From a virus, in the IMG/VR virus record IMGVR_UViG_3300045988_037604: DNA of 64,000 nucleotides; one strand, 5' to 3'. Shown piece by piece: positions 6,218 through 63,010 of this stretch (position 1 is its first letter; each line of letters starts with the position of its first letter). The notes beneath the pieces were generated by a model. That model was given only the letters and a program-made list of their open reading frames with translations. It was not told the DNA's origin and did no database searches. A program made the translations under genes and the position numbers.

Positions 6218-8833
6218 ATGGTATATCAATTAAAAAGAACTCAAACTAATAATAGACCTCAAGCATTTTGGGGTTCTCTTATTCCTTCAGCATTAAGTTT
6301 TGTTGGAGGTCTTATTACTAGTAGTCAGCAAGCTAAAGCTCAAAGACGAGCTTTGGAAGAACAACAAAGACTTGCTAAACAACAACTTGATATTAGTAAT
6401 CAAAATCAATTAGCTACTACTCTTAATAACTATGCTATTGCTCAACAATCTTATGACGATAAAGATTACAATCTTAAATATCGTATAGGAGGAGTTAAAA
6501 GACTTGGTGGCAGAAATATTATGATTACTGATGGAGGTAATGCTAAGAGAATAGGAAACAACACATATCTTCTACGGGGGGGTTCTCATGAAGATATTAA
6601 TGAAACTGGTCAAACTGGCATAGGTATTAATGTTGGTGGTAATGAGATTGAAGCTGAAGGTGGTGAAGTTGCTCAACGTAAGGGCAACTCTTTACGTATA
6701 TATTCAGCTCAACCTATTCTTGGTGGTATAAGTCCTGCTGAAGCTATAATGAGAGGATATAATAAAGATAGAGTATTTAATGCTCAACAAAGATTTAAAA
6801 AGAATAATGGTATTAAAGATGACGGTAGTCAACAAAGAAATGGTGGTTTAACTTCTAAGGATAGAGGTTCTTCTAAACATCCTTATCCTTCTGTAGCATC
6901 TAAAGATTTTGCAGGTGGTAATAGAAGTTATCCTATTCCAACTAAAGCTGATGCTATTGATGCTTTAAGACTTGCAGGTCTTCATGGAAGAAGCGACGTT
7001 AGAAGTAAGGTTTATAGTAAATATCCTGAACTTAGAAAGAAAGTTGGAGATAATCGTCCTAAAGCTTTAGACGGTGACGAATTTACTCCAATAAAAGGAG
7101 GTTATTACCCTAAAAGTGATGAGCAACGAATAACTAATTGGATGTCTTATTGGTTAAATCATAGAAGAAAACAACTATATAATAATATGAAAAAAACTTC
7201 TATTAGAAAAGAAGATGCTGGAAGTTGGTTAGGTAATGGTCGCCCTGAATTTACATTTAAACTTATAAAAGGTATGTCTCCTGAAAGAAGAAAAATAAAT
7301 GGAGTATTTTATAATCAAATAAATAGAGCAGCCAATGCAACAATAGATGAATTTAATACTATTAGTAATCCTAATTATCTTGGAGAATTTGATGAAGATG
7401 GAAAATTGATAAGATATAATATTAAAAATAAGAAATTTAATAATGGTGTTAGAGTACATGAAAGAACTCATGCTTCTGATGCTTATCCTCAATATAAAGC
7501 TATAGAAGATATTTTAAAGAAAGGAAAAGTTAATTTTCCAAATAGTGAATTTATAGATGATGAAGCAAAACATTATCATACTGACCCAAATGAAATATAT
7601 AGTAGAATAATGCAATATAGATATAATAATAAATTAAAACCAAATCAAGTTGTAGATAAGAAATACATTAATTCTCATAGAAAACAACTTAAAGATTTAG
7701 ATTTAAATATATTTGATGATAATACTCTTAGTAAATTTTTTAATGAAGTTGCAGATAATGGAAAAAGAAATAATACAAATTCTACATATATAGCAAGATT
7801 TGGTACTTATTTTAATAATAATACTAGACATATTGCTAAAAGAATAGGAGGTCTTACTAACCCCCCCGTAGAAAGATTTAAATGTGGTGGTCATATAAGA
7901 CCTAAAGCAGAAAAAGGTATGCTTGCTCCTATTTATAGTTATGGTAGTGATAGAAGAAGACTTCCTTCATTTGCTCCTATAGATGTTACTCCAAGAGCTA
8001 TTCCAAATTTTAAACTTGTATCTGCTCCAACTAATACAAAAACTCCTTTTGACCCAAATAGTGTTCCTTTTTTAGGAAATCAATCTACTTTTAAACCTGC
8101 TACTCAAGATTATATTGGTTTAGGTATTGATACTCTTGCTGCTTTAGGTAGTGGAATGTTTACTCGTTCTGCGTATAATAAAATGAATTTTGATTATGCT
8201 TTACCTAATTATGTAGATGAATCTCCAGTAGCATTTGATACAACGTATCATAATGAAGCTCAACAAGCAAATATAGAACGTAATAGACTTAATGCTCGAA
8301 ATTTGATTAGAGGTAATACTGCTAGTGCTCAAACATCTTTAGGTCGTATGCAACAAAGCGATGTAGATGCTATGATGGAAACTAATAAACTTCTTGATGA
8401 AAAGAGTAACAAAGAAGTTGAACTTAGAAATCAAAATGCTGCAAATGAACAACAAGTTCGTGCTAGAAACGCTGCTGCTAGAAATCAGTATTATCAAAAT
8501 GTTGCACAAATTAAAAATGCTGCAATTGAAGCTAAAAACAATATGGAGCTTGCTAAGGCTCAAAGTATTGGAGCAGATTTAAGTGGTCTTTCTCAAGCAT
8601 GGACTAATTTTGCTGGTAGTGTTGAAAGTAGATATGATAATCGTCAAAAAGAAGCTATTATTGCTGCTACCGCTAAAGACCCTGCTGTATTATCTAACGC
8701 TGTTCAATTTGGATATAATTTTAGTCCTGAAGTTCTTGCTGCTATTTATAATAGTACAGATGATGATAATCTTAAAAGTTTAGCATTATCACAATTAAGT
8801 ACTAAAAATAGACTTAGATATGGTATTAGATAA
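6218..8833 (+). CDS. virion structural or ejection protein (871 aa), function unknown
   Basis: ATG lies 1 nt after the previous stop. There is an N-terminal hydrophobic segment (FWGSLIPSALSFVGGLITS) and a Q/N/A-rich coiled-coil-like C-terminal third. It carries motif copies at 6571 and 7859 in frame. Confidence 0.7.
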   Translation: MVYQLKRTQTNNRPQAFWGSLIPSALSFVGGLITSSQQAKAQRRALEEQQRLAKQQLDISNQNQLATTLNNYAIAQQSYDDKDYNLKYRIGGVKRLGGRNIMITDGGNAKRIGNNTYLLRGGSHEDINETGQTGIGINVGGNEIEAEGGEVAQRKGNSLRIYSAQPILGGISPAEAIMRGYNKDRVFNAQQRFKKNNGIKDDGSQQRNGGLTSKDRGSSKHPYPSVASKDFAGGNRSYPIPTKADAIDALRLAGLHGRSDVRSKVYSKYPELRKKVGDNRPKALDGDEFTPIKGGYYPKSDEQRITNWMSYWLNHRRKQLYNNMKKTSIRKEDAGSWLGNGRPEFTFKLIKGMSPERRKINGVFYNQINRAANATIDEFNTISNPNYLGEFDEDGKLIRYNIKNKKFNNGVRVHERTHASDAYPQYKAIEDILKKGKVNFPNSEFIDDEAKHYHTDPNEIYSRIMQYRYNNKLKPNQVVDKKYINSHRKQLKDLDLNIFDDNTLSKFFNEVADNGKRNNTNSTYIARFGTYFNNNTRHIAKRIGGLTNPPVERFKCGGHIRPKAEKGMLAPIYSYGSDRRRLPSFAPIDVTPRAIPNFKLVSAPTNTKTPFDPNSVPFLGNQSTFKPATQDYIGLGIDTLAALGSGMFTRSAYNKMNFDYALPNYVDESPVAFDTTYHNEAQQANIERNRLNARNLIRGNTASAQTSLGRMQQSDVDAMMETNKLLDEKSNKEVELRNQNAANEQQVRARNAAARNQYYQNVAQIKNAAIEAKNNMELAKAQSIGADLSGLSQAWTNFAGSVESRYDNRQKEAIIAATAKDPAVLSNAVQFGYNFSPEVLAAIYNSTDDDNLKSLALSQLSTKNRLRYGIR
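6571..6584 (+). repeat. G7-core motif copy S1 (forward)
   Basis: atatcTTCTACGGGGGGGTTctc, inside gene 6218..8833, read CTA-CGG-GGG-GGT (LLRGG). Confidence 0.9.
7859..7872 (-). repeat. G7-core motif copy S2 (reverse)
   Basis: The plus strand reads actAACCCCCCCGTAGAaag, inside gene 6218..8833, read AAC-CCC-CCC-GTA-GAA (TNPPVE). Confidence 0.9.
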
Positions 8834-8846
8834 CTAAAATAAATTA

Positions 8847-8892
8847 AATACTTCTGATGGTGTTGTAACTGTCAGAAGTATTACTTATTTTT
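8847..8892 (+). terminator. rho-independent terminator after the 871-aa gene
   Basis: An 11-bp stem (8847-8857 aatacttctga / 8872-8882 tcagaagtatt) with a 14-nt loop, followed by a T-run at 8888-8892. It sits 14 nt after stop codon 8831-8833. Confidence 0.6.
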
Positions 8893-8921
8893 GTCATATT
8901 AATCTTTTAAATAATAAACAA

Positions 8922-10013
8922 ATGGCAAATCCAAAACAATATCAAGGAATACAAATAGGTGGTGTAGTTCCACAAAGAATACTTGGACAAAGAGATTTAT
9001 CTCCTCTTCAAAATTATGTTCAGACTCGTAATCAAATGTGGGAAGATGCTATTAAACAAAAATCTGCTATTGATGTAGCTTTAGGTAATCTTAAACTTAA
9101 TGCTGCTGAAGATAAATGGAAATATGATTATGGTCGTAGGATTCAAAAGAAGATTGATGATGCAGCTAAATTTGGTGATTATAGTAGAGCTTTAGATACT
9201 GCTGTACTTGAAGCTGGAAAGGCTGTTTCATCTCCTGAAGTTATGGGTCGTATTCGAGCAAATGAAGCTTATAAGAAAAAGAAACAAGAAGTTGATACTA
9301 ATGGTAATATTAGTGCTTTAACTAAGAAAGCTTGGAATATTGAAAATAAATATCACTATCAAGATACTTATGACGATGAAGGAAATATAGTAGGTGGTAG
9401 TGAATGGAATGCTAGTTGGGAACCAGTTGAAGAAGTAGATAATTTAACTATGATGAAAAATGCTATTTCTATGATTGGTATTAGTAGTAGAGAATCTTCT
9501 AGAACAACAGGTGATAATACAACTACTGCTGAGGGTACAGGTTCTAGTTTTCAAAAAGTTAGAGGTTCTAGTAGAATGGGTCTTTCTTATGCTCAAGTTA
9601 AATCTCAATTAGTAGATGTTATAAATAATGACCCTAAATGGAAAGCTAGTCTTGAACAAGAATATAGAGTTAATAAAATTCTTCTTAAAGATATTGATAC
9701 TCAAATTGCTAATACTCAAGACCCTTTGGAAATACAAAGACTTAAAGAGCAAAAGAATATGTATCAATCTAACATAACTAACGATAGAGGTTTTATAACT
9801 GCTAATTATGTAAATATTTTATTTAAGAAATATCCTAGTCTTATTAAGAATTTTGCATTTAGTAGAACTTCTAGTACTTCAACAGATATGACTGGAAAAG
9901 ATGATTATGCTAGAGGAAGTGGAAGTGGAAAAGGTTCTATGGAAGGCAAAGGTCCTTACGCTCCATCAGATAATCCGCAAGATAGTGTTTATGGTCCTCA
10001 AGGTAAAAATTAA
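8922..10013 (+). CDS. hypothetical virion protein (363 aa)
   Basis: ORF-track ORF on the module strand with protein-like composition. I recognise no motif. Confidence 0.7.
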   Translation: MANPKQYQGIQIGGVVPQRILGQRDLSPLQNYVQTRNQMWEDAIKQKSAIDVALGNLKLNAAEDKWKYDYGRRIQKKIDDAAKFGDYSRALDTAVLEAGKAVSSPEVMGRIRANEAYKKKKQEVDTNGNISALTKKAWNIENKYHYQDTYDDEGNIVGGSEWNASWEPVEEVDNLTMMKNAISMIGISSRESSRTTGDNTTTAEGTGSSFQKVRGSSRMGLSYAQVKSQLVDVINNDPKWKASLEQEYRVNKILLKDIDTQIANTQDPLEIQRLKEQKNMYQSNITNDRGFITANYVNILFKKYPSLIKNFAFSRTSSTSTDMTGKDDYARGSGSGKGSMEGKGPYAPSDNPQDSVYGPQGKN

Positions 10014-10025
10014 ATAAATAATATT

Positions 10026-11977: not shown

Positions 11978-14900
11978 ATGGATACAACTCAATTTATAAA
12001 TAAAGGTGGTTATGAAGTTCTTAATCCTCTTTGGAGTAAATCCAAAAAGAACACTCAACCTAAAACTATAATTAGTGCCAGTCCTCAACAAGGAGGATTG
12101 GCAGAAACTTTTTATAGAGCTAATCCTTCTAATTTTGTTTTTGAAGGTGCTAATAAATATTTAAGATATGGTATTACTCCTAATAGAGTTTCTCCAAATC
12201 TAGATAAAGAATTAGCTGATGCTCAGTCTAATTGGGCTAAAGGTTTTAATTCTATTTCTCAAGCTGTAATATCTGAAACACTTCTTGGTACTCTTAAAGC
12301 TTTTCCTGATTTATTTGATGCTATTACAAATGGATTTCTTCAATCAGATGGAGATTATCAAAATCCTATAAGTAATAAACTTCAAGAATGGCAAGATTAT
12401 TTTAATAATGAAGTTGCTCCTATTTATAGTGACCCAACTCGTGCTGATATATTACATGGTGGACTTACAAATTTTGGTTGGTGGGCTAGTAATTTACCTA
12501 GTGTTATGAGTAGTCTTACTCTTCTTATTCCTAGTACAGGTATTATTAAAGGCGTAGGTTATCTTGGTAAACTTACTAAAATTGGAGCTAGAACTCGTAA
12601 AGGTCTTAGAGCTTTATCTGGAGTAAATAAAGCTATTGATGAAGGTAAAACATTAAATGGTTTTCAGAAAGCTATAGTTGGTGCTACAAGTGGAATGGAA
12701 AGTAAATTTAGTAGATTTGCAAGTCTTTCTGCTAATGCTCTTCTTCAACGTACTATGGAGAATTATCAAGAAGCTCAAGGCGTATATAAAGATATGTATA
12801 GTGATGCTTATGATAAACTTAATAATATGAGTGATGAAGAATATGCTGATTTTGTAAATAAGAATAAACAACTTGTAGAAGAAGCTGGTGGTGATTCTTC
12901 TAATAAAGATGCTATTGCTCGTCGTATTGCCAAACGTTCTGCTGATGAAGATTTTAAATTTAATTATTGGAATGTTGGATTTGATATTCTTCAAATGTAT
13001 GGACTTCGTAATATGTGGAAAGGAATTAAAAGTGGTGAAAGTTCTGGTACTCTTAATAAAGTTCTTAGAGAACAAAAAGCTAGAGTCGGTAAAACTGCTG
13101 AAGAATTTGAAAAGTATCAACAAAATCTTTCTAAATGGACTAAACTTAGAAATAATTTAGCAGATAGACTTAAAGGTGAAAAAGTAGTTGTTGCTGGAGA
13201 ACTTTCTGAAGGTCTTGAAGAAGCTATTAATACTATCGCACAAGAAGAAGGTATGCACGTTGGTAAAGAACTAATTGGAGAAGATATTCATTCTTCATTT
13301 GATAATCGTCTTCAAAAATATCTTCAAAGTGGAGCTATTTATGATTCTGCTTTTTGGGGAGTTATGGGAGGTGTTGTATTTCATCATTTAGGTAGTGGTT
13401 TTGGAAGACTTCAACAAACATTAGAAGATAAAGCTAATTCTAAAGTTGATGATAAAACTGGAGAAAGTAAAAAGAAATCTCCTTTTAGTATTAGTGAATT
13501 AGGAGAAGTTAAATCTCGTAGAGAAGATATGAATAGTTGGTCTGCTATTACTAATACTTATATTAAACGTGCTCAAGAAATTAAGGAAGGTAAAAATCCT
13601 TATTCTATAGGAGAGGATGATAAAACATTAAAAGGTGAAGCTGATATTCAAGCTGCTAAACAAAAAGCAGATGATGACTTTATTACAGATATTACTTTGA
13701 ATGCTGCTCATAAAGGTAATCTTGATTATCTTAGAACATTTATGTCTAGTGATGAAGTTCGTAAAGCTATGGTAGAAAAAGGTGTTGTTAGTGAAGCAGA
13801 ATCTAAAGAACATCAACAAAAAATACTTGATAAAATAGATTCTACTATTGATAGTTATACTAATAATTTATCTAAACTTATCAATCTTGTAGATAATAAC
13901 GCTTTAAATAAAGCTCATAAAAATGATATTGTTCCTATTGAATATCTTCAAGGCATTGCCAGCAATAATGTTAAATATCAGCAAACTATTAAAAGTATAG
14001 GTCTTAGAGAACAACAATATGACCAACTTATAGTTGATGCTTTTGCTAATGAAGATATTCAAAAAGTTCTTGGTAATAAATATACTCCTGAACAATTTAG
14101 GGCTGCTGCTAGTCATGCTTTAATTAGTAATACTATGGCTGCACTTTATGCTGAGAAAAAAAGACTTATGAAAAATAAACTTACTCTTAGTGATAAAGTA
14201 GCTATAGATAATATAGATAGAACTCTTAAAGAATATGGTGAGATGCTAAACGATAATGAATATCGTTTGACTGTTGCTCATATGATTAATTCTGATTTTG
14301 ATGAAAAAGGCAATATTGTTAAAAATCCTACTAATATAGGAGAAGAGTTTGATAATATATTTATAGGTAAAGATGTTACTGGAGCTAATGACCAAACTGA
14401 TGCTCAAATTATATCTAATTTTAAAGCTTTTGCTAAGAAATATAATTTTAATGAAAGACTTGGTAACTTTGAAAGTGAAGAAAATGTTTTAGACCAACTT
14501 CGTAAACATAATATAACTACTACAGAAATTAATAATCTGATTGTTAAAGCTGATAAAGTTGGACTTCCTAGTGACACATTTAGTAAACTTCTTGTTACTC
14601 GTTCTGATATAGAACTTAATAGAAGATATAATCAAGCTCAACTTGTAACTACTGCTGATACTCTTTCTAAAGAATTAAGTTTTCTTCAAAATACAATGAA
14701 TGAAACTAGAAAGAAAGTTATTGATAATAGTTATAAATTTATTAATGGACTTGCAGATAAATACAAAGATGGAGAAAATAATTCTATTAAACAAGCAATA
14801 GATGCTTATTATGTAGATAATGATAAAGATTTTGATTCTGCTACTTCTTTTATGACTGCTTCTGAAAAATCATCTTTCAAAGAAGCTCTTGATGCTCTTC

Positions 14901-17900
14901 ATCTTAATTCTGGTCTTAATTATCGTCTTGGTAAGCAAATCCAAGAATTACTTGGAATGAGAGATAAAATTAAAGAAGCTAGAAATAAAGCTAAAGATTC
15001 TGAAGAAAAAAATGCTCCTGTAGAAGAAGGTAAAACTTCTACTGAATCTACAAGTACTAACACTACTGGTCAAGCTGCTGCAACTCAAAGTCAATCATCG
15101 ACACAAAATGCTTCAAATTCTTCGTCACAAGGCGTTCAATCACAGCAGACAAATAATCAATCAAGTGCACAACAAAAGTCGCCTACAAGCAAAACAAATA
15201 AGGAAAAATCGAATGTTACACAACAGAAATCAGAGTTTACACCAAAGAAATCAATAAATTTGATTTTTGATAAAGATGGTAATCCTACAAAAGCTAATAA
15301 TGTAGATGATGGTTATGAACTTGTAGCTGGAGAAGATGGAACTTATGAACTTACAGGAGCGAAACGTACTGATGATAGATTTTATAATAATACTGACATT
15401 GCTACTAACGATGAAACTCAAATAGTTTATAATCCTTATTTCAAATTTGATGATGAAGGTAATGTTATAAGTTTTGAAAAAGGCAAACTTGGTACTCAAG
15501 CTGATGTAGATGCTTATGAAAAAGCTTTAGATGAAGCTGAAAAACAAAAAGAAGAACAAGCTCAAGATGAAGAACAATCATCAAGTCCTTCTACGGGGGG
15601 GTTATCAACAGAACCTGAAAGTCAAACTTCTAGTGACCAAACTACTCAAGTTGAAGAAGAAACTAAACCTGAAGAAAAACCTGAAAATAAGAAAGAAGAA
15701 AAGAAAGGTCTTTCTCTTGAAGAACAAGATGAATTTAAAGAAAGAATGAGCAAAAAGATTCTTAATGATGTTAAAGCTAATCCAGATTTAGATTTGTCTG
15801 TTGCTAAAGAAGAGTATATTACTGAAGCAATTAAAATAGGTTATAGTGAAGAAGAAGCCAAAGAAATGACTGATAAATGGTTTAAGCTTCCAATTATGGT
15901 TCAGAAAATGATGAAAGCTAAAGATAAAAAATATGCTTCTATTCCTGACCTTATAGTAATAACTGCTGATAAAGCTCTTGATAGATTTAATAAACTTGTT
16001 AAAGAATATAATAATATTGCTAATGAATTTCTTAAAGAATATGCTTCTAATGTAAATCTTCCTGTTCGTAATGGAAAATATTATGGACGTCTTGAAGATA
16101 TTCTTAGATATGTAGAAGATGTAACTAAAGGTACTGAATCTTCTGATTTTATATTTGATGCTATTAAAAATTATCTTAAAACTGATGAAGCAAAAGAATT
16201 ATTTGTTTTAACTGATGAGAAAAATGTAGATAATGCTAATTATTTATCAAATACTCATAAAACTACATATCAAAGAAATGTAGAAAGAATTACAGGTAAT
16301 GTCATTAATACAATAAATATTAATAATCTTTCTGAAATTCTTGATGAAGATGGAATCAAAGCTGCTGAAAAAGAATTATCATTAATAGAACCTGGAAATG
16401 AACTTGATGTAGAAATAAGTACTAAACTTAATAAAAATACACAAGTTATTCTTTATAAACATAATGGAGTTGTTATAGGTTGGCAAGCTCTTTCTGATAT
16501 AAATCAAAATACTGGTAGAAATGTTAGAATTGCTGATTGTTGGCGACATGAACTTGATTTAAGTAAATCCGATAATGATGGAGCTGCTAAAGATTTCTTT
16601 AAACAAATTCTTAATCGTGAAGGAGATTTTGCTACTCTTGATGATATTATTCATAGTGTAGCTTTTGATAAACTTTCTAAAAAAGAATTTAAAGAATTAG
16701 TTACAGCTTTTGCTACTCATCCAAAAATTCAAGAAGCTATTAAAGATGGTATTCTCATAATAAACCAAGAAAAAGGATTTACTTATGAAAAGGCTTTAAA
16801 TGGTGTTGCTAAAATATGGAGATATAATTATGAATTTAAAGACTATAATGAAGTATTAAGTGCATCTATTGATGATTATTATAATAAACTTAGAAGTGAA
16901 ATATCTACTGCTAATTTGATTACTGATGGAAAACATACCATAACTGTAGGTATGATGTCTAAAGGTGAAGTTATAAGAGCTAAGGATAAAGAACTTAAAG
17001 AAGATGGTACTACTAGAAATACATCAGAAGTTGTAGCTCCTATAGCTACTGCGTTAAGTGCTGGTACTGAAGCATATATTGGTGTAGGTACTAACAATTA
17101 TGTTACTATATCTGGATTAGGTGCTCGTAATTATGGTACTACAGGTGAAGCTAAAAATAATCAAACATATCTTTGTCTTCCTAATACAAATGGAACTATA
17201 GATTATGTTGCAGCATACCCTATTACTCTTAGACCGATGACTTATATACATGATGGTAAAGAAACTGAAATACCAACAAATCAAGTTCTTGAAACATTAG
17301 TACAATCAGTTATTGGTCAAATACAAGAAAGACTTCTTAATGTAAAAGATTTTAATGATTGGAATGACCTTAGAAATTTAATTGCTAATATTTATTCTTT
17401 TGATAAGAATGGCATTCTTGGTGGTATAAGAGTTTATTATGATAATTATGGTAATGTTCAACTATTTTGTGATAATGGAAATAAATATACATTATTTGCT
17501 AAAAATGTTAAAGGTAATGTTCCTAATATAATTAAAGTTGAAGTTAATGGAGAAAAAAGAAATGTTTCTTTTGGAGAAGCAGCAAGTTTACTTGAAGATG
17601 ATATTAGAGAAAATACAAGAATTAATATAAATAGCACTCTTATTGCTGCTGATAATAATAGAGCTATGCCTATCAAAAACAAATTTATTTATTATGATAA
17701 AGAAGGTTTTCATATAAATATTCCTGCTTATAATGGACAAAATGCTTTTAATATAAATGCTAGTTCTTACAATAGTTTTCTTATAAATAATAATCTTCTT
17801 AGAGTAGATTTAGCTCAAGAGAATAGTTCTAATTATAGAAAAACTGCCATTAGAAAACCAGGAGGTAATCAAAATTTAACTATAAATATTCATGATAAAA

Positions 17901-19129
17901 TAGAGCAAGAGAACCCCCCCGTAGAAGATATTGAAACTTCAACACCTGTTAATACTTTACAATCAGATATTAACACTATTCTTAATGATGAAAGTATTGC
18001 TTCTAAAGGTATAGCTATTGCTGAAAGATTAATGTCTAATACAGCAACACAAAATTATGAAACTCTTAAAAATAAAGTTAAAGGTCATAAATATTCAACA
18101 GTATTTGATGGTTTATTTCCTGAAAATATTATTTTTGACGATGAAGCTATACAAAAAGAAAAGACTAAAGATAAAGACAATACAAATGTTGTAGCTTATT
18201 ATGATGCTAAAACAGATAGCATTGTTGTTGGAAATGATTGGCTTAATATAGCTTCTGACCCTAAACTTGGTGGAGGTAATCGTGCTGCTAGAGTTTTAAT
18301 TCATGAAAATCTTCATAAACAAATTAATGCTAGTCGAAATAAAGAAAAAGCTAAACGACAACTTAAAACAATTTATGATGATTTTGTTCAAGCAATAGAT
18401 GCTGATATTCTTGATTTATCTGCTGGTAAATTTAAAGAAGTAAATGCTAGACATGGTAATATATTTGAAAATGAAAATCATGCTAAAGATTTTATTAATC
18501 ATATTGCTGAATATAAATTTGATAAACTTCTTGATAAGAACAAAGAAGATACTGCTATTGAAGAATTTATAGTAGAAAGTCTTACTTCTGAAGGACTTAT
18601 TCAATATCTTAATTCTGTTCATGTAGAAGGTGAACACCTTAAAAAAGGTAATAAATCTATATGGCAAAGAATTATGGAATTTATTAATAGTATATTTGGA
18701 TTTGATATAGCTGATGAATCTCTTAGAGCTAAAGAGTTTAATACTCTTGCTAAAGCTTTTAGTAATGAGAAGAAAACTAAAGTACAAGAAGGAACTTTAA
18801 ATTTTAAAGAAGATGAAACTCAACAAACAAAAACTGATAATGTTATATCACAACAAGAGAGTGAAACTAAAGATATTTCTGAAGAAGAAGTTCAATCAGA
18901 AAAAGATGAAGATGAAACAGAAGATATTGGACTTGTAGATAATAATATTGATAAAGCTACAGAAGATGAATTTGATGAAGATGATGATTTAGATTTTTCT
19001 TCTGTTCCTGATAAAAGTCTTAATTCATATTCGACTGTTTTCGATTCTATTACAAGTCTTCCATTGTCAGAACAAGCCAAATTTGCTTCATTAATTGAGC
19101 AAGGTGAAGTTTCTGTCACTTGTCGATAG
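11978..19129 (+). CDS. giant virion cargo/ejection protein (2383 aa) with a zincin-type HExxH motif
   Basis: Uninterrupted 2383-codon ORF ending in TAG 19127-19129. VLIHENLHKQI gives HENLH at nt 18302-18316. It has an S/T/Q-rich linker (about 15040-15250), a K/E-rich linker (about 15650-15740) and an acidic C-terminus (about 18880-19010). Crassvirales place giant ejection proteins next to the virion RNAP gene. Confidence 0.65.
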   Translation: MDTTQFINKGGYEVLNPLWSKSKKNTQPKTIISASPQQGGLAETFYRANPSNFVFEGANKYLRYGITPNRVSPNLDKELADAQSNWAKGFNSISQAVISETLLGTLKAFPDLFDAITNGFLQSDGDYQNPISNKLQEWQDYFNNEVAPIYSDPTRADILHGGLTNFGWWASNLPSVMSSLTLLIPSTGIIKGVGYLGKLTKIGARTRKGLRALSGVNKAIDEGKTLNGFQKAIVGATSGMESKFSRFASLSANALLQRTMENYQEAQGVYKDMYSDAYDKLNNMSDEEYADFVNKNKQLVEEAGGDSSNKDAIARRIAKRSADEDFKFNYWNVGFDILQMYGLRNMWKGIKSGESSGTLNKVLREQKARVGKTAEEFEKYQQNLSKWTKLRNNLADRLKGEKVVVAGELSEGLEEAINTIAQEEGMHVGKELIGEDIHSSFDNRLQKYLQSGAIYDSAFWGVMGGVVFHHLGSGFGRLQQTLEDKANSKVDDKTGESKKKSPFSISELGEVKSRREDMNSWSAITNTYIKRAQEIKEGKNPYSIGEDDKTLKGEADIQAAKQKADDDFITDITLNAAHKGNLDYLRTFMSSDEVRKAMVEKGVVSEAESKEHQQKILDKIDSTIDSYTNNLSKLINLVDNNALNKAHKNDIVPIEYLQGIASNNVKYQQTIKSIGLREQQYDQLIVDAFANEDIQKVLGNKYTPEQFRAAASHALISNTMAALYAEKKRLMKNKLTLSDKVAIDNIDRTLKEYGEMLNDNEYRLTVAHMINSDFDEKGNIVKNPTNIGEEFDNIFIGKDVTGANDQTDAQIISNFKAFAKKYNFNERLGNFESEENVLDQLRKHNITTTEINNLIVKADKVGLPSDTFSKLLVTRSDIELNRRYNQAQLVTTADTLSKELSFLQNTMNETRKKVIDNSYKFINGLADKYKDGENNSIKQAIDAYYVDNDKDFDSATSFMTASEKSSFKEALDALHLNSGLNYRLGKQIQELLGMRDKIKEARNKAKDSEEKNAPVEEGKTSTESTSTNTTGQAAATQSQSSTQNASNSSSQGVQSQQTNNQSSAQQKSPTSKTNKEKSNVTQQKSEFTPKKSINLIFDKDGNPTKANNVDDGYELVAGEDGTYELTGAKRTDDRFYNNTDIATNDETQIVYNPYFKFDDEGNVISFEKGKLGTQADVDAYEKALDEAEKQKEEQAQDEEQSSSPSTGGLSTEPESQTSSDQTTQVEEETKPEEKPENKKEEKKGLSLEEQDEFKERMSKKILNDVKANPDLDLSVAKEEYITEAIKIGYSEEEAKEMTDKWFKLPIMVQKMMKAKDKKYASIPDLIVITADKALDRFNKLVKEYNNIANEFLKEYASNVNLPVRNGKYYGRLEDILRYVEDVTKGTESSDFIFDAIKNYLKTDEAKELFVLTDEKNVDNANYLSNTHKTTYQRNVERITGNVINTININNLSEILDEDGIKAAEKELSLIEPGNELDVEISTKLNKNTQVILYKHNGVVIGWQALSDINQNTGRNVRIADCWRHELDLSKSDNDGAAKDFFKQILNREGDFATLDDIIHSVAFDKLSKKEFKELVTAFATHPKIQEAIKDGILIINQEKGFTYEKALNGVAKIWRYNYEFKDYNEVLSASIDDYYNKLRSEISTANLITDGKHTITVGMMSKGEVIRAKDKELKEDGTTRNTSEVVAPIATALSAGTEAYIGVGTNNYVTISGLGARNYGTTGEAKNNQTYLCLPNTNGTIDYVAAYPITLRPMTYIHDGKETEIPTNQVLETLVQSVIGQIQERLLNVKDFNDWNDLRNLIANIYSFDKNGILGGIRVYYDNYGNVQLFCDNGNKYTLFAKNVKGNVPNIIKVEVNGEKRNVSFGEAASLLEDDIRENTRININSTLIAADNNRAMPIKNKFIYYDKEGFHINIPAYNGQNAFNINASSYNSFLINNNLLRVDLAQENSSNYRKTAIRKPGGNQNLTINIHDKIEQENPPVEDIETSTPVNTLQSDINTILNDESIASKGIAIAERLMSNTATQNYETLKNKVKGHKYSTVFDGLFPENIIFDDEAIQKEKTKDKDNTNVVAYYDAKTDSIVVGNDWLNIASDPKLGGGNRAARVLIHENLHKQINASRNKEKAKRQLKTIYDDFVQAIDADILDLSAGKFKEVNARHGNIFENENHAKDFINHIAEYKFDKLLDKNKEDTAIEEFIVESLTSEGLIQYLNSVHVEGEHLKKGNKSIWQRIMEFINSIFGFDIADESLRAKEFNTLAKAFSNEKKTKVQEGTLNFKEDETQQTKTDNVISQQESETKDISEEEVQSEKDEDETEDIGLVDNNIDKATEDEFDEDDDLDFSSVPDKSLNSYSTVFDSITSLPLSEQAKFASLIEQGEVSVTCR
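15590..15603 (+). repeat. G7-core motif copy S3 (forward)
   Basis: aagtcctTCTACGGGGGGGTTatc, inside gene 11978..19129, read TCT-ACG-GGG-GGG-TTA (SPSTGGL). Confidence 0.9.
17912..17925 (-). repeat. G7-core motif copy S4 (reverse)
   Basis: The plus strand reads gagAACCCCCCCGTAGAagatat, inside gene 11978..19129 (ENPPVED). Bases 17909-17931 are the exact 23-nt reverse complement of 6565-6587. Confidence 0.9.
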
Positions 19130-33072: not shown

Positions 33073-33105
33073 AAGTATTGATATTAAATATTAGTTAAAC
33101 TCTAA

Positions 33106-43797: not shown

Positions 43798-43805
43798 ATA
43801 TTGAT

Positions 43806-47871: not shown

Positions 47872-47880
47872 ATTATACTT

Positions 47881-50895: not shown

Positions 50896-52308
50896 TTAAT
50901 CTACAATACAATAATCAGAATTATTATCAATTTTAACATCTATATCTTTTTTATTAACAATAACATGATTAGATGATAGTTGTTTATCATTGATTGCTTT
51001 TTCTTCTAATGTATTTTCGCAATAAAGACTATATAATATAATAGGTATATTAAACTTACATTTACTCAATCTGTATATATAAGATTTTATATCATCACAA
51101 AGACTTGACGTAATTATTAAAACGTCTACATCTATATTAAGTTCTTTATCAGGACTATTTGTTGTTGATATAATGCTTATTTTTCCAAGATTAAATAATT
51201 GTTGGATAAGTTTCTTTTGGTTCGTTACACCCATTATTTTTTGCTTACCTTTCTTAGCTCCAGTTTTATAATAAATAGGATTACCATCCTTGTCTATAGC
51301 TGGAATTGATTCTAATTTGTCATGAAAACTTTTACATACTTCTTTATTATATTTAATGTTTATATTATTAGTTAATTCATCTGCAAAATCTGCAAACTTA
51401 TTTATTATAAGAATCTTTTTATCTTTATAACTATCAATAATATCTATAATAGCATTAATCTTATTTGAATAATTAGCAAGAAGTCTAGCTCTTTTTCTAA
51501 TCATTTCATAAGTAGAATTAGCTCTTTCTTTTATTGCTATAGGATTATAAAGCTTATCTATTTGTTGATTATATTCTGTACTCATATCTAGATATTCATT
51601 CCAACCATTATCTCTAGCAAGTTTATCACAATATGCCATACTAGAAGCATTATTTGTGTTATTACCAGACATAGCAATTTTTATATTATCTAGACCTCCA
51701 AATATATTAAGTGACATTCTAATATTGTCATTATAGTATTGAAGAAGTTTAGCATCATTAGTATCATCTTTAATAGTGATAGGAATACGATACTCTTCTA
51801 CGGGGGGGTTAGTACGAATATTATCGACATCATTTTGCTTAAACTCTTTAACAATAGGACAACAAGAATAAAAACTATCTTTAGTTCTACCATCAAGAGG
51901 TTTAGTAATAATTACTAATTTATATGTGCTTTTATCTAATATTCCTAAATGAACAAAAGTAAAACTAATAGGATTGTAAATAATAGTAAGAGTAGGTTTA
52001 TACAGATTAATATTATCAGCAACCCAACTATCAGTTAATACATGAATTTGTCCTTTATTAATCAAATTTAGAAAAATACTATCATAATTATTCTTTTGAT
52101 TAGTAAGATATTCTTTGATATAATCTTTATCTTCAAAGTCTTTAACTAAAATAAGTACATTACACGTAGGACTTCTATTAAATAGTCTAGGAAGAAGAAG
52201 ATAAATAGGTCTAACACTATCTAAAGGATGAGGTATTAGAAGACTTCCATTACCATTACGAGCATTCCATCTTTCGATAGCATCATTAAACATTTCTTCT
52301 TGTGTCAT
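50896..52308 (-). CDS. SF2 (SNF2/DEAD-like) helicase-related protein (470 aa)
   Basis: The C-terminal half KKILIINKFADFADELTNNI...GKISIISTTNSPDKELNIDVDVLIITSS looks like a helicase C-terminal RecA domain. The N-terminal Walker motifs are not recognisable. It contains motif copy S12. Confidence 0.4.
   Translation of the reverse strand: MTQEEMFNDAIERWNARNGNGSLLIPHPLDSVRPIYLLLPRLFNRSPTCNVLILVKDFEDKDYIKEYLTNQKNNYDSIFLNLINKGQIHVLTDSWVADNINLYKPTLTIIYNPISFTFVHLGILDKSTYKLVIITKPLDGRTKDSFYSCCPIVKEFKQNDVDNIRTNPPVEEYRIPITIKDDTNDAKLLQYYNDNIRMSLNIFGGLDNIKIAMSGNNTNNASSMAYCDKLARDNGWNEYLDMSTEYNQQIDKLYNPIAIKERANSTYEMIRKRARLLANYSNKINAIIDIIDSYKDKKILIINKFADFADELTNNINIKYNKEVCKSFHDKLESIPAIDKDGNPIYYKTGAKKGKQKIMGVTNQKKLIQQLFNLGKISIISTTNSPDKELNIDVDVLIITSSLCDDIKSYIYRLSKCKFNIPIILYSLYCENTLEEKAINDKQLSSNHVIVNKKDIDVKIDNNSDYCIVD
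51797..51810 (+). repeat. G7-core motif copy S12 (forward)
   Basis: atactcTTCTACGGGGGGGTTagta, inside gene 50896..52308. The sense (minus) strand reads ACT-AAC-CCC-CCC-GTA-GAA (TNPPVE). Confidence 0.9.
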
Positions 52309-52311: not shown

Positions 52312-54585
52312 TTACATTTCTTCATTATCAAATAAATTGTTATATAAACCAAAGTTCTTCTTTAAAAGAGCTTTTCCGCTAAGAGTTTTATTATCCTTAT
52401 TACTTTTTTGATTAGGACTAATGCCAAGCTTAATAGGATTTATAATCTTATAAGCTTCTTCATAATAATATTTATAATCTATATTACGAAGAGCAATATC
52501 TTTATCGTCAAGTTTATTAAGAATAATTACAGGTTTTCCACTAGCTAGAACACTACGTTTCTTATCATGAACATTCTCTTTCATTATAACAACTCCTTTA
52601 GTAGAAACATAGAAACGAACATGACGTTGACTATGAACATCAATTACTTTTCCATGCTCTACTTTTTGATAAACAACTTCAAATTGTTTACCTACATTTT
52701 GAGTCTTACAAAAATCAAGAATATCTTTATGATTACGAAGTGTTTCCATAACTGGAACACTATGTGCAAAATATTCAAATACAGCTTTAGCAACTACAGG
52801 CATATCATAACCTTTTTTCAAATCTTTAAGATATTGTTTAGGGTCAAGACCACCTTTATATTCAATCTTATCATTACTTTGAATATTAAAATAATTATTA
52901 ATATCCCTAGCAACAAAAAGTTTATATTGTTCTGAATCTGCACCTAATTTATTTTGAGCACACCAATCATCAGTTATACGTTTGAAATCTTCTTCTTTAC
53001 TTTTAGGAAGCTTTACAATAATGCCATCAGTATTAGCACTAACAACATGAATGCCATCAAGTTCGAGAGCTTCTACTACCATCATTACCATTAGCTGTCC
53101 ATTGATAGTTACTTGCATCTGCGCAAATCTATCAAACAAAAAGAACATTTCAAAACCAAACTTTCCATAAATTGCATTAATAACAATCTTTAAAGCTTCA
53201 GCTGCTAGTTTATTATGAACTCCTGTTATTACAAGACCATCTTCATCTTTTGTATGTTTACATTTAATACGAGTTAGACGAAAATAATCAACCATTTTAA
53301 CAAATACATTATTATTTAAATGTTTAGGAGCAATATTATACGCAACCATAACACTAGGATAAAATGAACTTATATCGTAATGTATATAAGTATAATCATC
53401 TGTACTTGTTAATACAGCAGGTCTATCTTGTGAATGTAAACCTCCAGTAGCAATAGTATAAACAGTACCATAAAAATTTATTACTTTTTCAAAAGCATCT
53501 TTATTAGTTCTATAAATAACAACTTTCTTCATATCTTCAAGAACTTTTTGAAGTTCAGGAGTTTTAAAACATATATGAGGAAATATTATCTTATTAAAAC
53601 TAAGAGCAGTTCTTTGAGTACGTAGATTTTTAAAAGCATCTATTTGTAAACCACTACGTTCAGAATAAAATTTATAAAGAAGTTTATCAGCAATAGTACT
53701 TCTAGCAGCACATAAAAGATTAAGATTAAATGCAACACCTAAAGAATATCTAAGTTTAATCTCATCAGGCTTTTGTCTAGCAATTTCACAAACTAGATAT
53801 ACATCATTCTTATTATAATGAAGCATAGGTTTAACATATTTAGGAAGAATATACCTATCAAAATCATTAGTAATCAAATAATTAAGTTGTTCATTACTCA
53901 TGCCTTCATATTCCATTTCTTTCCTATATATATCTCCTTCTTCATCATCTATAGGAGGTAATGTAAAATCTAGAAGATTATGCCATTTAAGATTAATACT
54001 AACTTGTTTAAGAGATTTACCAAACTTTTTTCTTTCACCAGTACTTTTATCAATATTAACACCAGCAGAATTAAGAGCATAAATTTTAAACAAATCAACA
54101 GTTGCCCAAGGAAGTCTATATTTACGAATCAAATCAAGTTCTCTATCTTTCCATAAAGCATCTTTATCATCTTGAAGACTAAGAAGTTTATCATTAATTT
54201 CTTTAAGTTTATGACAAAGTTGTTTAGTAGTATCAAAACGATTAAAATACATCATGAAAGCTTTAAACATCATATCATCATAACCTTGATTATTATATCC
54301 AAATACATCATATCTAACAGGATTTCCATCTTCGTCAAAATAAGCTTCCATACTATTAATATAAGAAACAAGTTTTAGAAGTTGAGAATCATCAGTATCA
54401 CTAATATAAAATATTTTAGATTTAACAGATTCAAGTCTAGACTCTATCTCAGCGACACTTAAACATTCAGTAAGTGCCATACCTTCACAATCTTTGAATA
54501 CTCTAAGATAATCTTGAACATCAACAAAAGTTGCACTAAAAAGATTTTTAAAACATTCAATATCTGTGGCAATACTACGTATCAT
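52312..54585 (-). CDS. family B DNA polymerase
   Basis: Exo I ATDIECF, Exo II YNNQGYDDMMF, Exo III YNKNDVYLV, Pol A DISSFYPS, Pol B KIVINAIYGKFG and Pol C SANTDGIIV. Confidence 0.9.
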   Translation of the reverse strand: MIRSIATDIECFKNLFSATFVDVQDYLRVFKDCEGMALTECLSVAEIESRLESVKSKIFYISDTDDSQLLKLVSYINSMEAYFDEDGNPVRYDVFGYNNQGYDDMMFKAFMMYFNRFDTTKQLCHKLKEINDKLLSLQDDKDALWKDRELDLIRKYRLPWATVDLFKIYALNSAGVNIDKSTGERKKFGKSLKQVSINLKWHNLLDFTLPPIDDEEGDIYRKEMEYEGMSNEQLNYLITNDFDRYILPKYVKPMLHYNKNDVYLVCEIARQKPDEIKLRYSLGVAFNLNLLCAARSTIADKLLYKFYSERSGLQIDAFKNLRTQRTALSFNKIIFPHICFKTPELQKVLEDMKKVVIYRTNKDAFEKVINFYGTVYTIATGGLHSQDRPAVLTSTDDYTYIHYDISSFYPSVMVAYNIAPKHLNNNVFVKMVDYFRLTRIKCKHTKDEDGLVITGVHNKLAAEALKIVINAIYGKFGFEMFFLFDRFAQMQVTINGQLMVMMVVEALELDGIHVVSANTDGIIVKLPKSKEEDFKRITDDWCAQNKLGADSEQYKLFVARDINNYFNIQSNDKIEYKGGLDPKQYLKDLKKGYDMPVVAKAVFEYFAHSVPVMETLRNHKDILDFCKTQNVGKQFEVVYQKVEHGKVIDVHSQRHVRFYVSTKGVVIMKENVHDKKRSVLASGKPVIILNKLDDKDIALRNIDYKYYYEEAYKIINPIKLGISPNQKSNKDNKTLSGKALLKKNFGLYNNLFDNEEM

Positions 54586-55151
54586 ATAATATTAATTTCA
54601 TATCCATTATAATTATTATCTTTACTAGCACTATACCATTTAGTTAGATGATTACAAAATTCTTTATATTTATCATCATCTATGTATTTAATAAAAGGAG
54701 AATAACTAACACAATATCCTCTAATATTACCATTATCTTTAGTAATATATAGTTTATCAGTTTTATTACTTATATCTGTTATAGATAAAAATAGTTTAGC
54801 TGCATCACCAAGTAATAATATTTTTACGGCATGAGTATTAACAATATCTCTAATTGTATGTATAATACATCTACTAATAATATTACTATTTAGAGGACAT
54901 TTATCAGTCAATTTACATCTAATAAGTGGAACTATAAAATAATCGTTTAGCCCCCCCGTAGAAGGACTTAATGCTTCATTTATTATTTCCACATATTTAC
55001 TAAATGTCATTCCTTTATTCTTATAAGCATTATAATCAACATTAGGTACAACTATTATTTTACCATAAAGAGGATTACCAACACCTTTAAGACAATGACA
55101 TTTATCATTAAATAGTCTTAGAGGACAATCTTTACATACATTATAAGTCAT
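54582..55151 (-). CDS. uracil-DNA glycosylase superfamily protein (family 4-like)
   Basis: N-terminal Cys cluster CKDCPL...KCHC, then GVGNPLYGKIIVVPNVD in place of the G-x-G...GEAPG block. 4-nt overlap with polB. It contains motif copy S13. Confidence 0.5.
   Translation of the reverse strand: MTYNVCKDCPLRLFNDKCHCLKGVGNPLYGKIIVVPNVDYNAYKNKGMTFSKYVEIINEALSPSTGGLNDYFIVPLIRCKLTDKCPLNSNIISRCIIHTIRDIVNTHAVKILLLGDAAKLFLSITDISNKTDKLYITKDNGNIRGYCVSYSPFIKYIDDDKYKEFCNHLTKWYSASKDNNYNGYEINII
54949..54962 (-). repeat. G7-core motif copy S13 (reverse)
   Basis: The plus strand reads AGCCCCCCCGTAGAaggactt, inside the UDG-like gene. The sense strand reads AGT-CCT-TCT-ACG-GGG-GGG-CTA (SPSTGGL). Confidence 0.9.
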
Positions 55152-58519: not shown

Positions 58520-58855
58520 TTAAGCTCCCCCATAGAGGAACTTAATAATGTCAGCATTTTCTTCTTCTATTTTCTTACAAGCATTAAGAATAACATCAAT
58601 ACTTTTATGTCTAACTTTAATTATATCTCTAATTACAGTAGTCATATCATGTTGACTTAATCTCATAAGATGATAAATTGTTTTAAAACCTTTACGAGTA
58701 TTAAGAGAAAAGTTATAAGGAATAATATAACCTCTACGATGTGGAGGATTCTTATTAGTTTTAAGAACATAACCACTACATTCTACAACTTCTCCAAAAA
58801 CAGGTCCACCACAATGTTTTAAATCATAATTATAAGCACAAGTAGTACATAACAT
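58520..58855 (-). CDS. hypothetical protein (111 aa)
   Basis: ORF-track ORF. The C-terminal FLYGGA is encoded by the degenerate motif copy S14. Confidence 0.6.
   Translation of the reverse strand: MLCTTCAYNYDLKHCGGPVFGEVVECSGYVLKTNKNPPHRRGYIIPYNFSLNTRKGFKTIYHLMRLSQHDMTTVIRDIIKVRHKSIDVILNACKKIEEENADIIKFLYGGA
58523..58536 (-). repeat. degenerate motif copy S14 (reverse)
   Basis: The plus strand reads AGCTCCCCCATAGAgga; its reverse complement is tccTCTATGGGGGAGCT. It encodes the C-terminal LYGGA of gene 58520..58855. There are two mismatches in the core. Confidence 0.35.
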
Positions 58856-59195: not shown

Positions 59196-59197
59196 AA

Positions 59198-62819: not shown

Positions 62820-62835
62820 AACAATATAAAAATTA

Positions 62836-62921
62836 AATAGGTGGTGTGCATTTAAATTTGCGACGGAATTGTATTAACTCTTAAACACTAAAGCGAATAC
62901 TTAGTTTGACTTCCACCTATT
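62836..62921. other. 9-bp inverted repeat enclosing 68 nt (possible structured RNA or operator)
   Basis: aataggtgg 62836-62844 pairs with ccacctatt 62913-62921. Inside is an ATTTAAAT palindrome within tgcATTTAAATttgcg, and a 5-bp inner stem gtatt 62871-62875 / aatac 62896-62900. It has no tRNA cloverleaf. Confidence 0.3.
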
Positions 62922-62961
62922 ATATTAATTAATCTATTGCAAAGATAAACAATAATATCTT

Positions 62962-62975
62962 TCTACGGGCGGGTT
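62962..62975 (+). repeat. motif copy S15, interrupted-G variant (forward)
   Basis: atatctTTCTACGGGCGGGTTATa, intergenic, 33 nt from the stop of gene 63011..63445. Confidence 0.7.
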
Positions 62976-63010
62976 ATACCAATAATTTAATGATTAGTAA
63001 CATCTTGATA

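Follow-up and report, generated by a model that had tools for sequence, protein, structure and literature searches.

The DNA analyzed here is a 64,000-nt stretch of viral sequence (IMG/VR record IMGVR_UViG_3300045988_037604; "the window" throughout, meaning that whole stretch), and it carries 15 copies of an asymmetric motif of ~22 nt in which a pyrimidine tract is followed by TAC and a run of G. Members of the same motif family are present in all six Intestiviridae genomes examined, namely the window and five relatives, at 15–31 copies each (19–31 in the relatives). Collectively, our analyses show that selection maintains the motif as a cis-acting DNA signal, strand-specific and written into whichever codons tolerate the motif string, and that it is a strand- or direction-specific signal of DNA metabolism, independent of the direction of transcription. 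They also show that the system is conserved across the Intestiviridae while its single sites turn over. What emerges is a genuine array of cis-elements of this family, the prototype crAssphage included, that is under strong selection and apparently undescribed; in kind it would be a dispersed, polar array of enzyme-recognition sites, for which a function can only be proposed. No published description of the motif was found in the searchable literature, including the phi14:2 RNA polymerase (RNAP) paper, the Yutin 2021 survey, the crAssphage phage-plasmid preprint, and the PacBio crAssphage study. The per-strand arrays and the family-wide occurrence, which extends to the prototype crAssphage, go beyond a preliminary description of this DNA. 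In the genomes of this whole phage family, which dominates the human gut virome, no other sequence is as strongly over-represented as the motif.

Motif copies in the window and selection on the DNA string

The variant found in the window is YCTTCTACGGGGGGGTT, with seven copies on the + strand and eight on the − strand. Searching with TACGGGGGG and allowing at most one mismatch gave 13 matches, as against 0.20 expected from dinucleotide shuffles (maximum 2). A position weight matrix (PWM) built from the strong sites recovered exactly the 15 copies listed in the preliminary description, all of them at the places and in the orientations given there, the weak copies 33070−, 36098−, 58534−, and 62964+ among them. 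Real sites scored clearly apart from background, and the regular expression of the family, YYYYYAYGGG[GC], by itself returned the same 15 copies and no others. Runs of at least five G or C number 11 in the window: nine G7/C7 runs and one G6 run lie in motif copies, and the weak copy at 58534 accounts for the last, a G5. Ten uninterrupted G7/C7 runs had been counted previously, one too many, the copy at 36011–36016 being G6; and the window, at 27.5% GC, contains 13.6% G and 13.8% C, slightly less than the ~15% each that had been supposed.

Copies were placed by motif scan, PWM scan, or both, together with their context of open reading frames (ORFs). Ten lie in plausible genes, six sense and four antisense; the earlier count inside ORFs was eleven. 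The six sense copies are read in the same three frames that had been reported for the forward form. The first reading, LLRGG, occurs at 6573 in the + copy at 6565–6586 (ATATCTTCTACGGGGGGGTTCT), inside ORF 6218–8833. The second contains STGG, at 15592 and 54960, and is read PSTGG both in the + copy at 15584–15605 (AGTCCTTCTACGGGGGGGTTAT), inside a 2383-aa ORF at 11978–19129, and in the − copy at 54947–54968 (AGTCCTTCTACGGGGGGGCTAA), inside ORF 54582–55151, which in relatives is a uracil-DNA glycosylase. The third, LYGG, occurs at 22366, 47040, and 58534, in the + copy at 22358–22379 (GTTCTCTCTACGGGGGGGATAA) inside a 4613-aa ORF at 19219–33060, in the − copy at 47027–47048 (AACCTCTTTACGGGGGGGCTGG) inside the DnaG-like primase gene at 46642–47913, and in the weak − copy at 58521–58542 (AGTTCCTCTATGGGGGAGCTTA; PWM score 17.4), which forms the last codons of ORF 58520–58855 (LYGGA-stop). 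All four antisense intragenic copies read NPPVE; these are the − copies at 7857–7878 (AATCTTTCTACGGGGGGGTTAG; ORF 6218–8833), 17910–17931 (ATATCTTCTACGGGGGGGTTCT again; ORF 11978–19129), and 25817–25838 (AACCTCTCTACGGGGGGGTTAA; ORF 19219–33060), and the + copy at 51791–51812 (TACTCTTCTACGGGGGGGTTAG), inside ORF 50896–52308, annotated in relatives as an SNF2-type ATPase or helicase.

The five other copies are intergenic or lie on a stop codon, and it is exactly these that have interrupted G-runs. The − copy at 33057–33078 (ATACTTCCTACGGGCGGGTTAT) overlaps the stop codon of the 4613-aa ORF, to which it is antisense. The + copy at 36000–36021 (AGCCTCTCTACGGGGGGTTTCT; G6) and the − copy at 36085–36106 (AGTCTCCCTACGGGCAGGCTAT; weak, PWM score 18.0) are the left and right halves of an intergenic inverted pair upstream of a RepL-like ORF. 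Finally, the + copies at 43778–43799 (ATATTTCCTACGGGGCGGTTAT) and 62956–62977 (TATCTTTCTACGGGCGGGTTAT) are intergenic, 7 nt beyond the stop of ORF 43806–44156 and 34 nt beyond that of ORF 63011–63445, respectively, and antisense to these ORFs.

Codon-preserving shuffles of the ORFs (n = 300) retained a mean of 5.5 matches to the family expression, as against 15 observed. About 0.5 intragenic copies were left of the 10 observed, the remainder being the five intergenic copies that shuffling does not touch, and runs of at least six G or C fell to a mean of 1.15 from 10. The motif as originally proposed survives this comparison. So does the suggestion that the nucleotide string is conserved and not a peptide, which is borne out by the three frames, by the two orientations, and by a frame shift at the primase site of crAss002, one of the relatives. 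In an alignment of that site the motif sits in a variable loop and is made of ordinary aligned codons: four genomes read P/T-L/F-Y-G-G, crAss002 reads PLRGN from the same DNA motif one frame off, and in another relative, ctcc615, the copy has decayed by one base. At orthologous sites the core is 82% identical, compared with 39–49% for the flanks. Antisense intragenic copies of crAssphage favor CAC over TAC, a preference that, by our reading of the pattern, avoids an in-frame TAG stop. It is the protein that accommodates the motif, not the motif the protein. Across the genomes, about two thirds of the copies are inside ORFs, at ~45 sense to 30 antisense, and the intergenic share is ~30%.

Occurrence, turnover, and spacing in the Intestiviridae

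The window is an AT-rich segment of a crAss-like phage. Its nearest public record is the uncultured phage cr8_1 (Crassvirales; Intestiviridae; Obtuvirinae); parts of the window match it at ~80% nucleotide identity, the primase proteins are 75% identical, and on these sequence comparisons the window probably belongs to the Obtuvirinae, with cr8_1 as its closest recorded member. Whereas the window holds 15 copies in 64 kb, cr8_1 has 27 (14 +, 13 −) of the variant CATAYCTTTTACGGGGSGGCTAGA. Two other records of the Obtuvirinae, cr271_1 and ctcc615, which fall outside the genus of cr8_1, have 19 copies each, of the variants CATYTCTTCTACGGGGGAGCT and YCYTTCTACGGGGGWGST, respectively; the weak window copy at 58521–58542 looks like the variant of these two phages. 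Carjivirus communis, the prototype crAssphage (Crudevirinae), has 31 copies of TCCATCCTCYACGGGGRGTM, and the cultured phage crAss002 (Churivirinae) has 29 (16 +, 13 −) of CTCCTYTAYGGGGGAA. In each genome, 10-mers of the motif are by far the most over-represented, 1,000- to 4,000-fold in five genomes and ~240-fold in crAss002.

Common to all variants is a core of a pyrimidine tract, A-Y, and GGGG, within a conserved block from about −10 to +13 around the A; the profile around the sites contains no conservation beyond this block. Within a genome the flanks of the core are alike, and between lineages they differ. Because they drift in concert within each lineage, a reader is implied that is encoded by the phage and co-evolves with the sites. 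A lineage-specific variant could also serve as a compact taxonomic signature. BLAST with the cr8_1 form matched only cr8_1 among 50,697 INPHARED phage records because the motif drifts, and k-mer enrichment and regular expressions were used instead; the same drift may be the reason that the system has stayed unnoticed. A scan of related Crassvirales, as the preliminary description had envisaged, found the sites conserved and positionally constrained there.

The motif is not universal in the Crassvirales. YACGGGG is absent from crAss001, a Bacteroides phage of the Steigviridae, whose only possible analogue is a different and weaker motif, and nothing comparable was found in phi14:2. The dispersed motif of crAss001 itself, YCTTCTGGAG (CTTCCTGAG), has 35 copies, is ~18-fold enriched as an 8-mer, occurs in all frames and both orientations, and keeps a minimum same-strand gap of 1537 bp (P < 5e-5); this array is perhaps a weaker counterpart of that of the Intestiviridae. 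A host factor was rejected as the reader, since crAss001 and crAss002 both infect Bacteroides and yet their motifs differ. Two further observations concern the occurrence of the motif. Tandem pentamers, (AGCGN)n, directly follow several copies, even inside ORFs (for example GGGGAGTTGAGCGTAGCGAAGCGGAGCGT), at ~6027, 28178, 44958, and 95870 of crAssphage (BK010471) and at ~4215, 47845, and 86217 of crAss002; none are found in the window. They could be iteron-like or a second element. In addition, the cr8_1-type motif occurs in two IMG/VR contigs, IMGVR_UViG_3300045988_037651 (124.8 kb) and IMGVR_UViG_3300045988_064312 (167.1 kb), both of which far exceed the 90–100 kb typical of crAss-like genomes and could be concatemeric, chimeric, or larger relatives.

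Within the Obtuvirinae most sites are orthologous, such as those in the primase, uracil-DNA glycosylase, and SNF2-type ATPase genes, two in each giant ORF, and the one at the giant-ORF stop codon. The window copies 6565+, 43778+, and 58521− have orthologues at 29631−, 86694−, and 71512+ of cr8_1, respectively, and 25817− and 54947− are orthologous within the Obtuvirinae. At the end of the giant ORF, 33057− is matched by a copy at the same gene end in cr8_1 (3400+), cr271_1 (66215−), and ctcc615 (12775−). Some orthologues reach further: those of 22358+ are found in cr8_1, cr271_1, ctcc615, and the prototype crAssphage, those of 51791+ in cr8_1, cr271_1, ctcc615, and crAss002, and those of 47027−, in the primase gene, in cr8_1, cr271_1, the prototype crAssphage, and crAss002. 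Orthology across subfamilies is limited to two or three sites, the LYGG ones in the primase and the giant ORF; all others have their nearest same-orientation neighbor 0.3–5 kb away. Despite this turnover, copy number (27–31 per ~95 kb) and spacing statistics are alike between subfamilies; therefore, it is the array that selection maintains, and not particular sites. One property of the sites themselves follows the genes: in cr8_1, G7 prevails in sense copies, and GGGGCGG in antisense and intergenic ones, whereas the window is split between intragenic G7 and intergenic interrupted runs. Coding constraint or homopolymer slippage may be the cause.

The spacing is a property of each strand taken separately. 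In all six genomes the minimum gap between same-strand copies is 2.0–3.4 kb (P ≤ 0.004 each against random placement; P < 5e-5 in cr8_1, crAssphage, and crAss002), and same-strand spacing averages ~6.5 kb, with gaps in the window of 6.8–13.6 kb on the + strand and 3.0–10.9 kb on the − strand. Relatedness among the genomes makes these tests less than fully independent, although most sites have no orthologue in another subfamily. Same-strand gaps have a coefficient of variation (CV) of 0.34–0.44, instead of the expected 1.0, in the window, cr8_1, crAssphage, and crAss002. Avoidance of nearby direct repeats was considered as the sole cause and rejected on the regularity that crAssphage (P = 0.001) and crAss002 (P = 0.008) show in excess of a hard-core exclusion null, an excess not seen in the other three genomes. 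Copies on opposite strands, by contrast, lie as near to one another as 17–120 bp, and such close pairs are mildly enriched, mostly in intergenic DNA (in crAssphage, 5 observed vs. 1.4 expected; P = 0.007). Forward and reverse copies alternate significantly more than random strand labels would allow (12/14 in the window, 24/29 in crAss002). Random rotation of the array of one strand against that of the other fully reproduces this alternation; the arrays of the two strands are therefore independent of each other, with alternation as a by-product. The same null disposes of explanations in which alternation is primary, namely invertible segments, shufflon-like sfx sites, terminal inverted repeats, and long-range RNA pairing.

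The close inverted pairs are convergent as well as divergent, with spacings of 17–120 bp and no fixed dimer geometry. One of them marks a recurrent locus. The RepL-like winged-helix ORF of the window, at 35254–35817 on the − strand (weak Pfam matches to HTH_27, MarR, and HTH_36), lies 190 nt downstream of an inverted motif pair, and its product shares BLASTP similarity, including the string YVINHNYLYRG, with RepL gp43 and gp88 of the prototype crAssphage. The distance from the inverted pair to the gene is 190–270 nt for the RepL-like ORF in the window, its syntenic counterpart in cr8_1, and crAssphage repL gp88, and ~540 nt for repL gp43, the pair being upstream in every case; the syntenic pairs are at 47+/118− in cr8_1 and 16536+/16640− in ctcc615. 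The crAssphage origin predicted by Ori-Finder is directly upstream of the first repL (PMC10983915), at a motif pair. In the same phage the genes for single-stranded DNA-binding proteins are the most highly expressed (PMC10983915). Although they are syntenic and their neighbors ~75% identical, the RepL-like ORFs of the window (35254–35817) and cr8_1 (369–944) have no detectable BLASTP similarity, which suggests, as far as these comparisons go, that the initiator has been replaced or is evolving very fast. No RepL-like gene is annotated at the locus in cr271_1 or ctcc615, yet the inverted pair persists. The preliminary description had named this winged helix-turn-helix (wHTH) protein as a candidate binder of the motif. 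The protein lacks such conservation across these relatives, whereas the motif core is invariant across the family; despite the pair upstream of its gene, we rejected it as the reader of the whole array, which it probably is not.

Motif copies also coincide with the ends of sequence records. An independent virome scaffold, MT836702.1, has its position 1 exactly at CCATCCTCCACGGGG, which is site 95750− of crAssphage, and the ends of the cr8_1 record (positions 1–130 and the far end) fall in a motif pair. Physical genome ends at the motif were considered and rejected, because a 20-nt repeat in ~30 copies would of itself break de Bruijn assemblies, and nothing motif-like was found in crAssphage one 1853-bp terminal repeat away. 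These record ends are most likely assembly breaks of this kind, and the repeat is a likely cause of such breaks in crAss-like genomes generally.

The genes of the window form a + block at 287–33060, which includes the giant ORFs of 2383 and 4613 aa, and a − block of replication genes at 34070–63982. Just after the giant ORF and its stop-codon copy, Rfam identifies a tRNA-Gln (anticodon TTG; 33161–33232, + strand), the only known RNA family found by the Rfam scan and the reason for short BLAST matches to Lak megaphages. Pfam identifies an ATP-dependent DNA ligase at 44598–45788. The phage also encodes a RecD-like superfamily 1 (SF1) helicase (Pfam AAA_30 and UvrD_C_2) and a RecT-like annealase (PHROG).

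A proposed role in DNA synthesis and the alternatives to it

The − strand gene at 46642–47913 encodes a DnaG/TOPRIM-type primase (PHROG 12622, DNA primase; E = 5e-62) that is 44–75% identical across the Intestiviridae and whose orthologue in crAss002 is gp57. The PHROG match is its only one, with no Pfam match and no PDB sequence match, and its sequence contains no CxxC zinc-finger motif. Its first 14 codons, from a GTG start, overlap ORF 46272–46727; because the overlap arises only if this upstream start is used, the true start is probably the ATG 14 codons in. No DnaB-type helicase was noticed among the annotations of the Intestiviridae records examined.

We tentatively favor the reading that DNA synthesis on a given strand starts at fixed points, each marked by a motif copy on that strand. 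A process that runs along one strand, or in one direction, would need a site within a bounded distance, and regular cover of each strand would supply it. In this proposal the copy would act as a signal for primer synthesis or initiation that is exposed when the duplex is unwound. Its likeliest candidate reader would be the primase of the family; a phage RNA polymerase making primers is conceivable but less likely. A primase that lacks CxxC, in phages where no DnaB-type helicase was seen, might need a template-recognition signal of its own. The pyrimidine tract and YTA would template a purine-rich primer, and the G-run could act as a recognition anchor that forms a very stable hybrid in a genome of 27% GC. 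Replication forks, displaced strands, and recombination-primed synthesis could each expose either strand; each strand would need its own cover, and hence, within the proposal, the regular per-strand spacing. Each intergenic inverted pair, that at the predicted origin by repL among them, would provide one start per strand; the ssiA and ssiB sites of RSF1010 are a precedent for opposite-strand starts at an origin. Close opposite-strand pairs would thus be harmless if the motif directs priming, and at origins even expected. A wider form of the proposal, on which we place somewhat less confidence still, is that the Intestiviridae, to which the most abundant phage of the human gut belongs, replicate by sequence-programmed discontinuous synthesis, from 20-nt starts that are spaced ~6.5 kb apart on each strand and read by a phage enzyme, and not by a stochastic helicase-coupled primase. 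If this is true, then the points of initiation on both strands are set by sequence.

Several points weigh against this proposal. There is no direct evidence of priming, and known DnaG-type primases recognize 3–5 nt, not a block of ~20 nt worth ~30 bits; the resemblance of YTA or CTG to known primase trinucleotides is weak and post hoc. The flanks contain no AT-rich unwinding element, and no GC or AT skew or composition step was found within 2.5 kb of the sites. Nor does cover need to be complete, in that cr271_1 and ctcc615 tolerate same-strand gaps of 27–38 kb, and in three of five genomes the spacing shows no regularity beyond that of hard-core exclusion. The phi14:2 genome has no array comparable to that of the Intestiviridae. 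Finally, the sites show no significant single-strand structure of the kind present in classical priming signals of the ssi or G4 type. A hairpin is possible on the motif strand only, by pairing of the pyrimidine tract with the G-run (C-G, and T/U-G wobble) around a YACG loop, as at 25817–25838, 54947–54968, and 58521–58542, and the complementary strand of the window variant cannot form it. The YACG loop can be likened to the UNCG tetraloop. The hairpin was nonetheless rejected as weak, with z-scores that are not significant against shuffles, and covariation is uninformative about it because any pyrimidine pairs with G.

A less probable alternative is that a site-specific nickase encoded by the phage recognizes the copies and, late in infection, interrupts one strand at each, as in T5, the phiKMV-like phages, and the Pseudomonas putida phage tf, and that ligase seals the nicks after injection. 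An asymmetric site of ~20 bp would suit homing-endonuclease-like nickases. The phage has the ATP-dependent DNA ligase noted above, and HNH endonuclease genes are annotated in relatives, although the ORF adjoining the ligase has no HNH match in Pfam or PHROG. The comparative signature also fits, in that the consensus of nicked phages, 9–19 nt long, recurs along the genome at places that related phages share, and evolves together with the presumed nickase (PMC3517423). However, the sites of T5, phiKMV, and tf are all on one strand, and the nicks of tf are unevenly distributed (PMC3517423), whereas the motif copies are about equally divided between the strands and regularly spaced. Moreover, opposite-strand pairs 17–120 bp apart are enriched, and simultaneous nicks at these would create fragile staggered breaks.

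The independence of the two orientation sets has a second possible explanation, since a translocating helicase-nuclease or motor that reads one orientation of a Chi-like signal, and changes its activity there, would need regular sites for each direction of travel. Such a signal could spare phage DNA while that of the host is degraded, or seed recombination-dependent replication. The specificity of the motif, ~30 bits as estimated from the profile, is enough for absence from the host genome, as a mark of self requires. Besides the RecD-like SF1 helicase and RecT-like annealase of the phage, a Gam-like inhibitor and a PD-(D/E)XK exonuclease are annotated in relatives. We nevertheless consider a Chi-like role unlikely. 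Known Chi sequences are 5–8 nt, compared with a conserved block of ~20 nt here; a host enzyme as reader would predict one motif for all phages of a host genus, contrary to what crAss001 and crAss002 show; and we know of no phage-encoded enzyme that recognizes Chi.

It is similarly improbable that the copies are duplex sites bound by a protein with an initiator or architectural role, for instance the RepL-like wHTH protein or a virion protein of the IHF/HU type, and serve origins, loops, or packaging, with alternation arising from selection against deletion-prone direct repeats. IHF sites are asymmetric and ~30 bp long, and IHF/HU-like genes are annotated in crAssphage, crAss002, and crAss001. 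An inverted pair does lie upstream of RepL-like genes and at the Ori-Finder origin, and the spacing of all sites irrespective of strand is somewhat regular too (CV 0.54–0.66, P ~0.01). An orientation-blind function, however, predicts exclusion regardless of strand and interleaving above chance, and what is found is two independent strand sets with close inverted pairs enriched. Pairs that are both convergent and divergent, 17–120 bp apart, likewise offer no fixed geometry to a dimer, and conservation of the motif core is not matched by the RepL-like protein.

Signals for gene expression are still harder to reconcile with the distribution of the copies. The preliminary description had led with a phage RNAP promoter, T7-like and with an initiating G-run, and a conserved, asymmetric block of ~20 nt that ends in a G-run is indeed what T7-type promoters look like. 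Only one of the 15 copies, 36098−, is sense and upstream of a gene, 268 nt from the wHTH gene; most are intragenic, sense and antisense, about two thirds across the family lie in ORFs, and both orientations occur within unidirectional gene blocks. In the crAss-like model phage phi14:2, no motif is common to the regions upstream of early transcripts, and transcription of middle and late genes starts from host sigma-70-like promoters (bioRxiv 10.1101/2020.03.07.982082). A T7-like RNAP is not annotated in any of seven related genomes, which have only the two-barrel RNAP of the crAss virion, although not every ORF of the window was scanned. As to terminators or pause sites, several intergenic copies lie just beyond stop codons and inverted pairs can form hairpins, but single copies have no hairpin with a T-run, and the post-stop copies are antisense to the gene. 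We regard this class of explanation as very unlikely. The polar barrier, another of the functions suggested previously, fails on density, since sites in both orientations every 3 kb would stop everything.

Finally, a selfish or neutral GC-rich mini-element, spread by insertion or gene conversion like the GC clusters of yeast mitochondria, would account for a short GC-rich repeat that is enriched in the intergenic DNA of an AT-rich genome and changes in concert, but it is hardly credible for a motif that at the primase site is spelled by the usual codons of a variable loop, where the Intestiviridae differ by no indel of motif size, is orthologous across genera with a conserved core and diverged flanks, keeps strict same-strand spacing in six genomes, and has PWM scores clearly above background.

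Whatever its reader, the array offers a handle on crAss-like replication, recombination, or DNA processing, and cultured systems are available in crAss002 with Bacteroides xylanisolvens and C. communis with Phocaeicola.

Relation to known systems

The motif array shares single features with a number of known sequence systems. The uptake signal sequence of Haemophilus and the DNA uptake sequence of Neisseria are likewise over-represented, mostly within ORFs, read in several frames and both orientations, enriched in noncoding DNA, and in some cases arranged as inverted pairs (PMC1939737). They differ in that uptake, through a competence receptor for which a lytic phage has no counterpart, is independent of orientation, so that no per-strand spacing is expected, whereas spacing here is orientation-specific; they also differ in copy density and in type of genome, and no competence machinery is annotated in the relatives of this lytic phage genome. 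The promoters of T7-type RNAPs and the hairpin promoters of the N4 virion RNAP are conserved, asymmetric, and ~20 nt long, and those of T7 begin with a G-run, but they are few, upstream of genes, and sense, while the motif, in the window as in the relatives, is mostly intragenic and in both orientations. Intrinsic terminators consist of a hairpin and a T-run; single motif copies have no T-run and in most cases fold no better than shuffles. Mobile GC clusters and insertions resembling miniature inverted-repeat transposable elements are recognized as insertions relative to homologues, which the motif at the primase site, made of aligned codons and orthologous across genera, is not.

Among priming signals, ssiA and ssiB of RSF1010, which are used by the RepB' primase, and the G4-type origin are strand-specific, read on single-stranded DNA, and inverted at an origin by the initiator gene, an arrangement that the inverted motif pairs upstream of RepL-like genes and at the Ori-Finder origin may parallel. 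They are, however, hairpins of ~40 nt found only at origins, and most motif copies lie far from any origin and form no stable hairpin. The sites of the T7 primase (GGGTC) place a G-run next to the start, but are 5 nt long and frequent. To our knowledge, there is no precedent for a dispersed, regular array of 20-nt priming sites across a whole genome.

Chi, the signal of RecBCD and AddAB, and the FtsK orienting polar sequences (KOPS) are like the motif over-represented and orientation-dependent, and act as signals to translocating machines, with one set for each direction of travel. In contrast to the motif, which is ~20 nt long, specific to the phage lineage, and balanced between strands, Chi is 5–8 nt, defined by the host, and skewed with the direction of replication. 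In the way its copies are distributed, the motif is similar to uptake sequences and Chi, from both of which it is set apart by length, lineage specificity, and the per-strand spacing rule. By comparative signature, the closest known class is that of the localized nick sites of T5, phiKMV, and tf. Those of T5/BF23, the phiKMV-like phages, and tf have asymmetric, phage-specific consensus sequences, and occur at many sites, within genes regardless of coding, at conserved positions (PMC3517423). They occupy one strand with uneven spacing, whereas the motif, known so far from sequence alone, forms equal, independent, and regular arrays on both strands, in which close opposite-strand pairs are common. 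The grammar of the array, in which independent, regular, strand-specific sets of sites are kept through near-complete turnover, in essential genes and in any frame, is unmatched by nick sites, Chi, KOPS, uptake sequences, or promoters.

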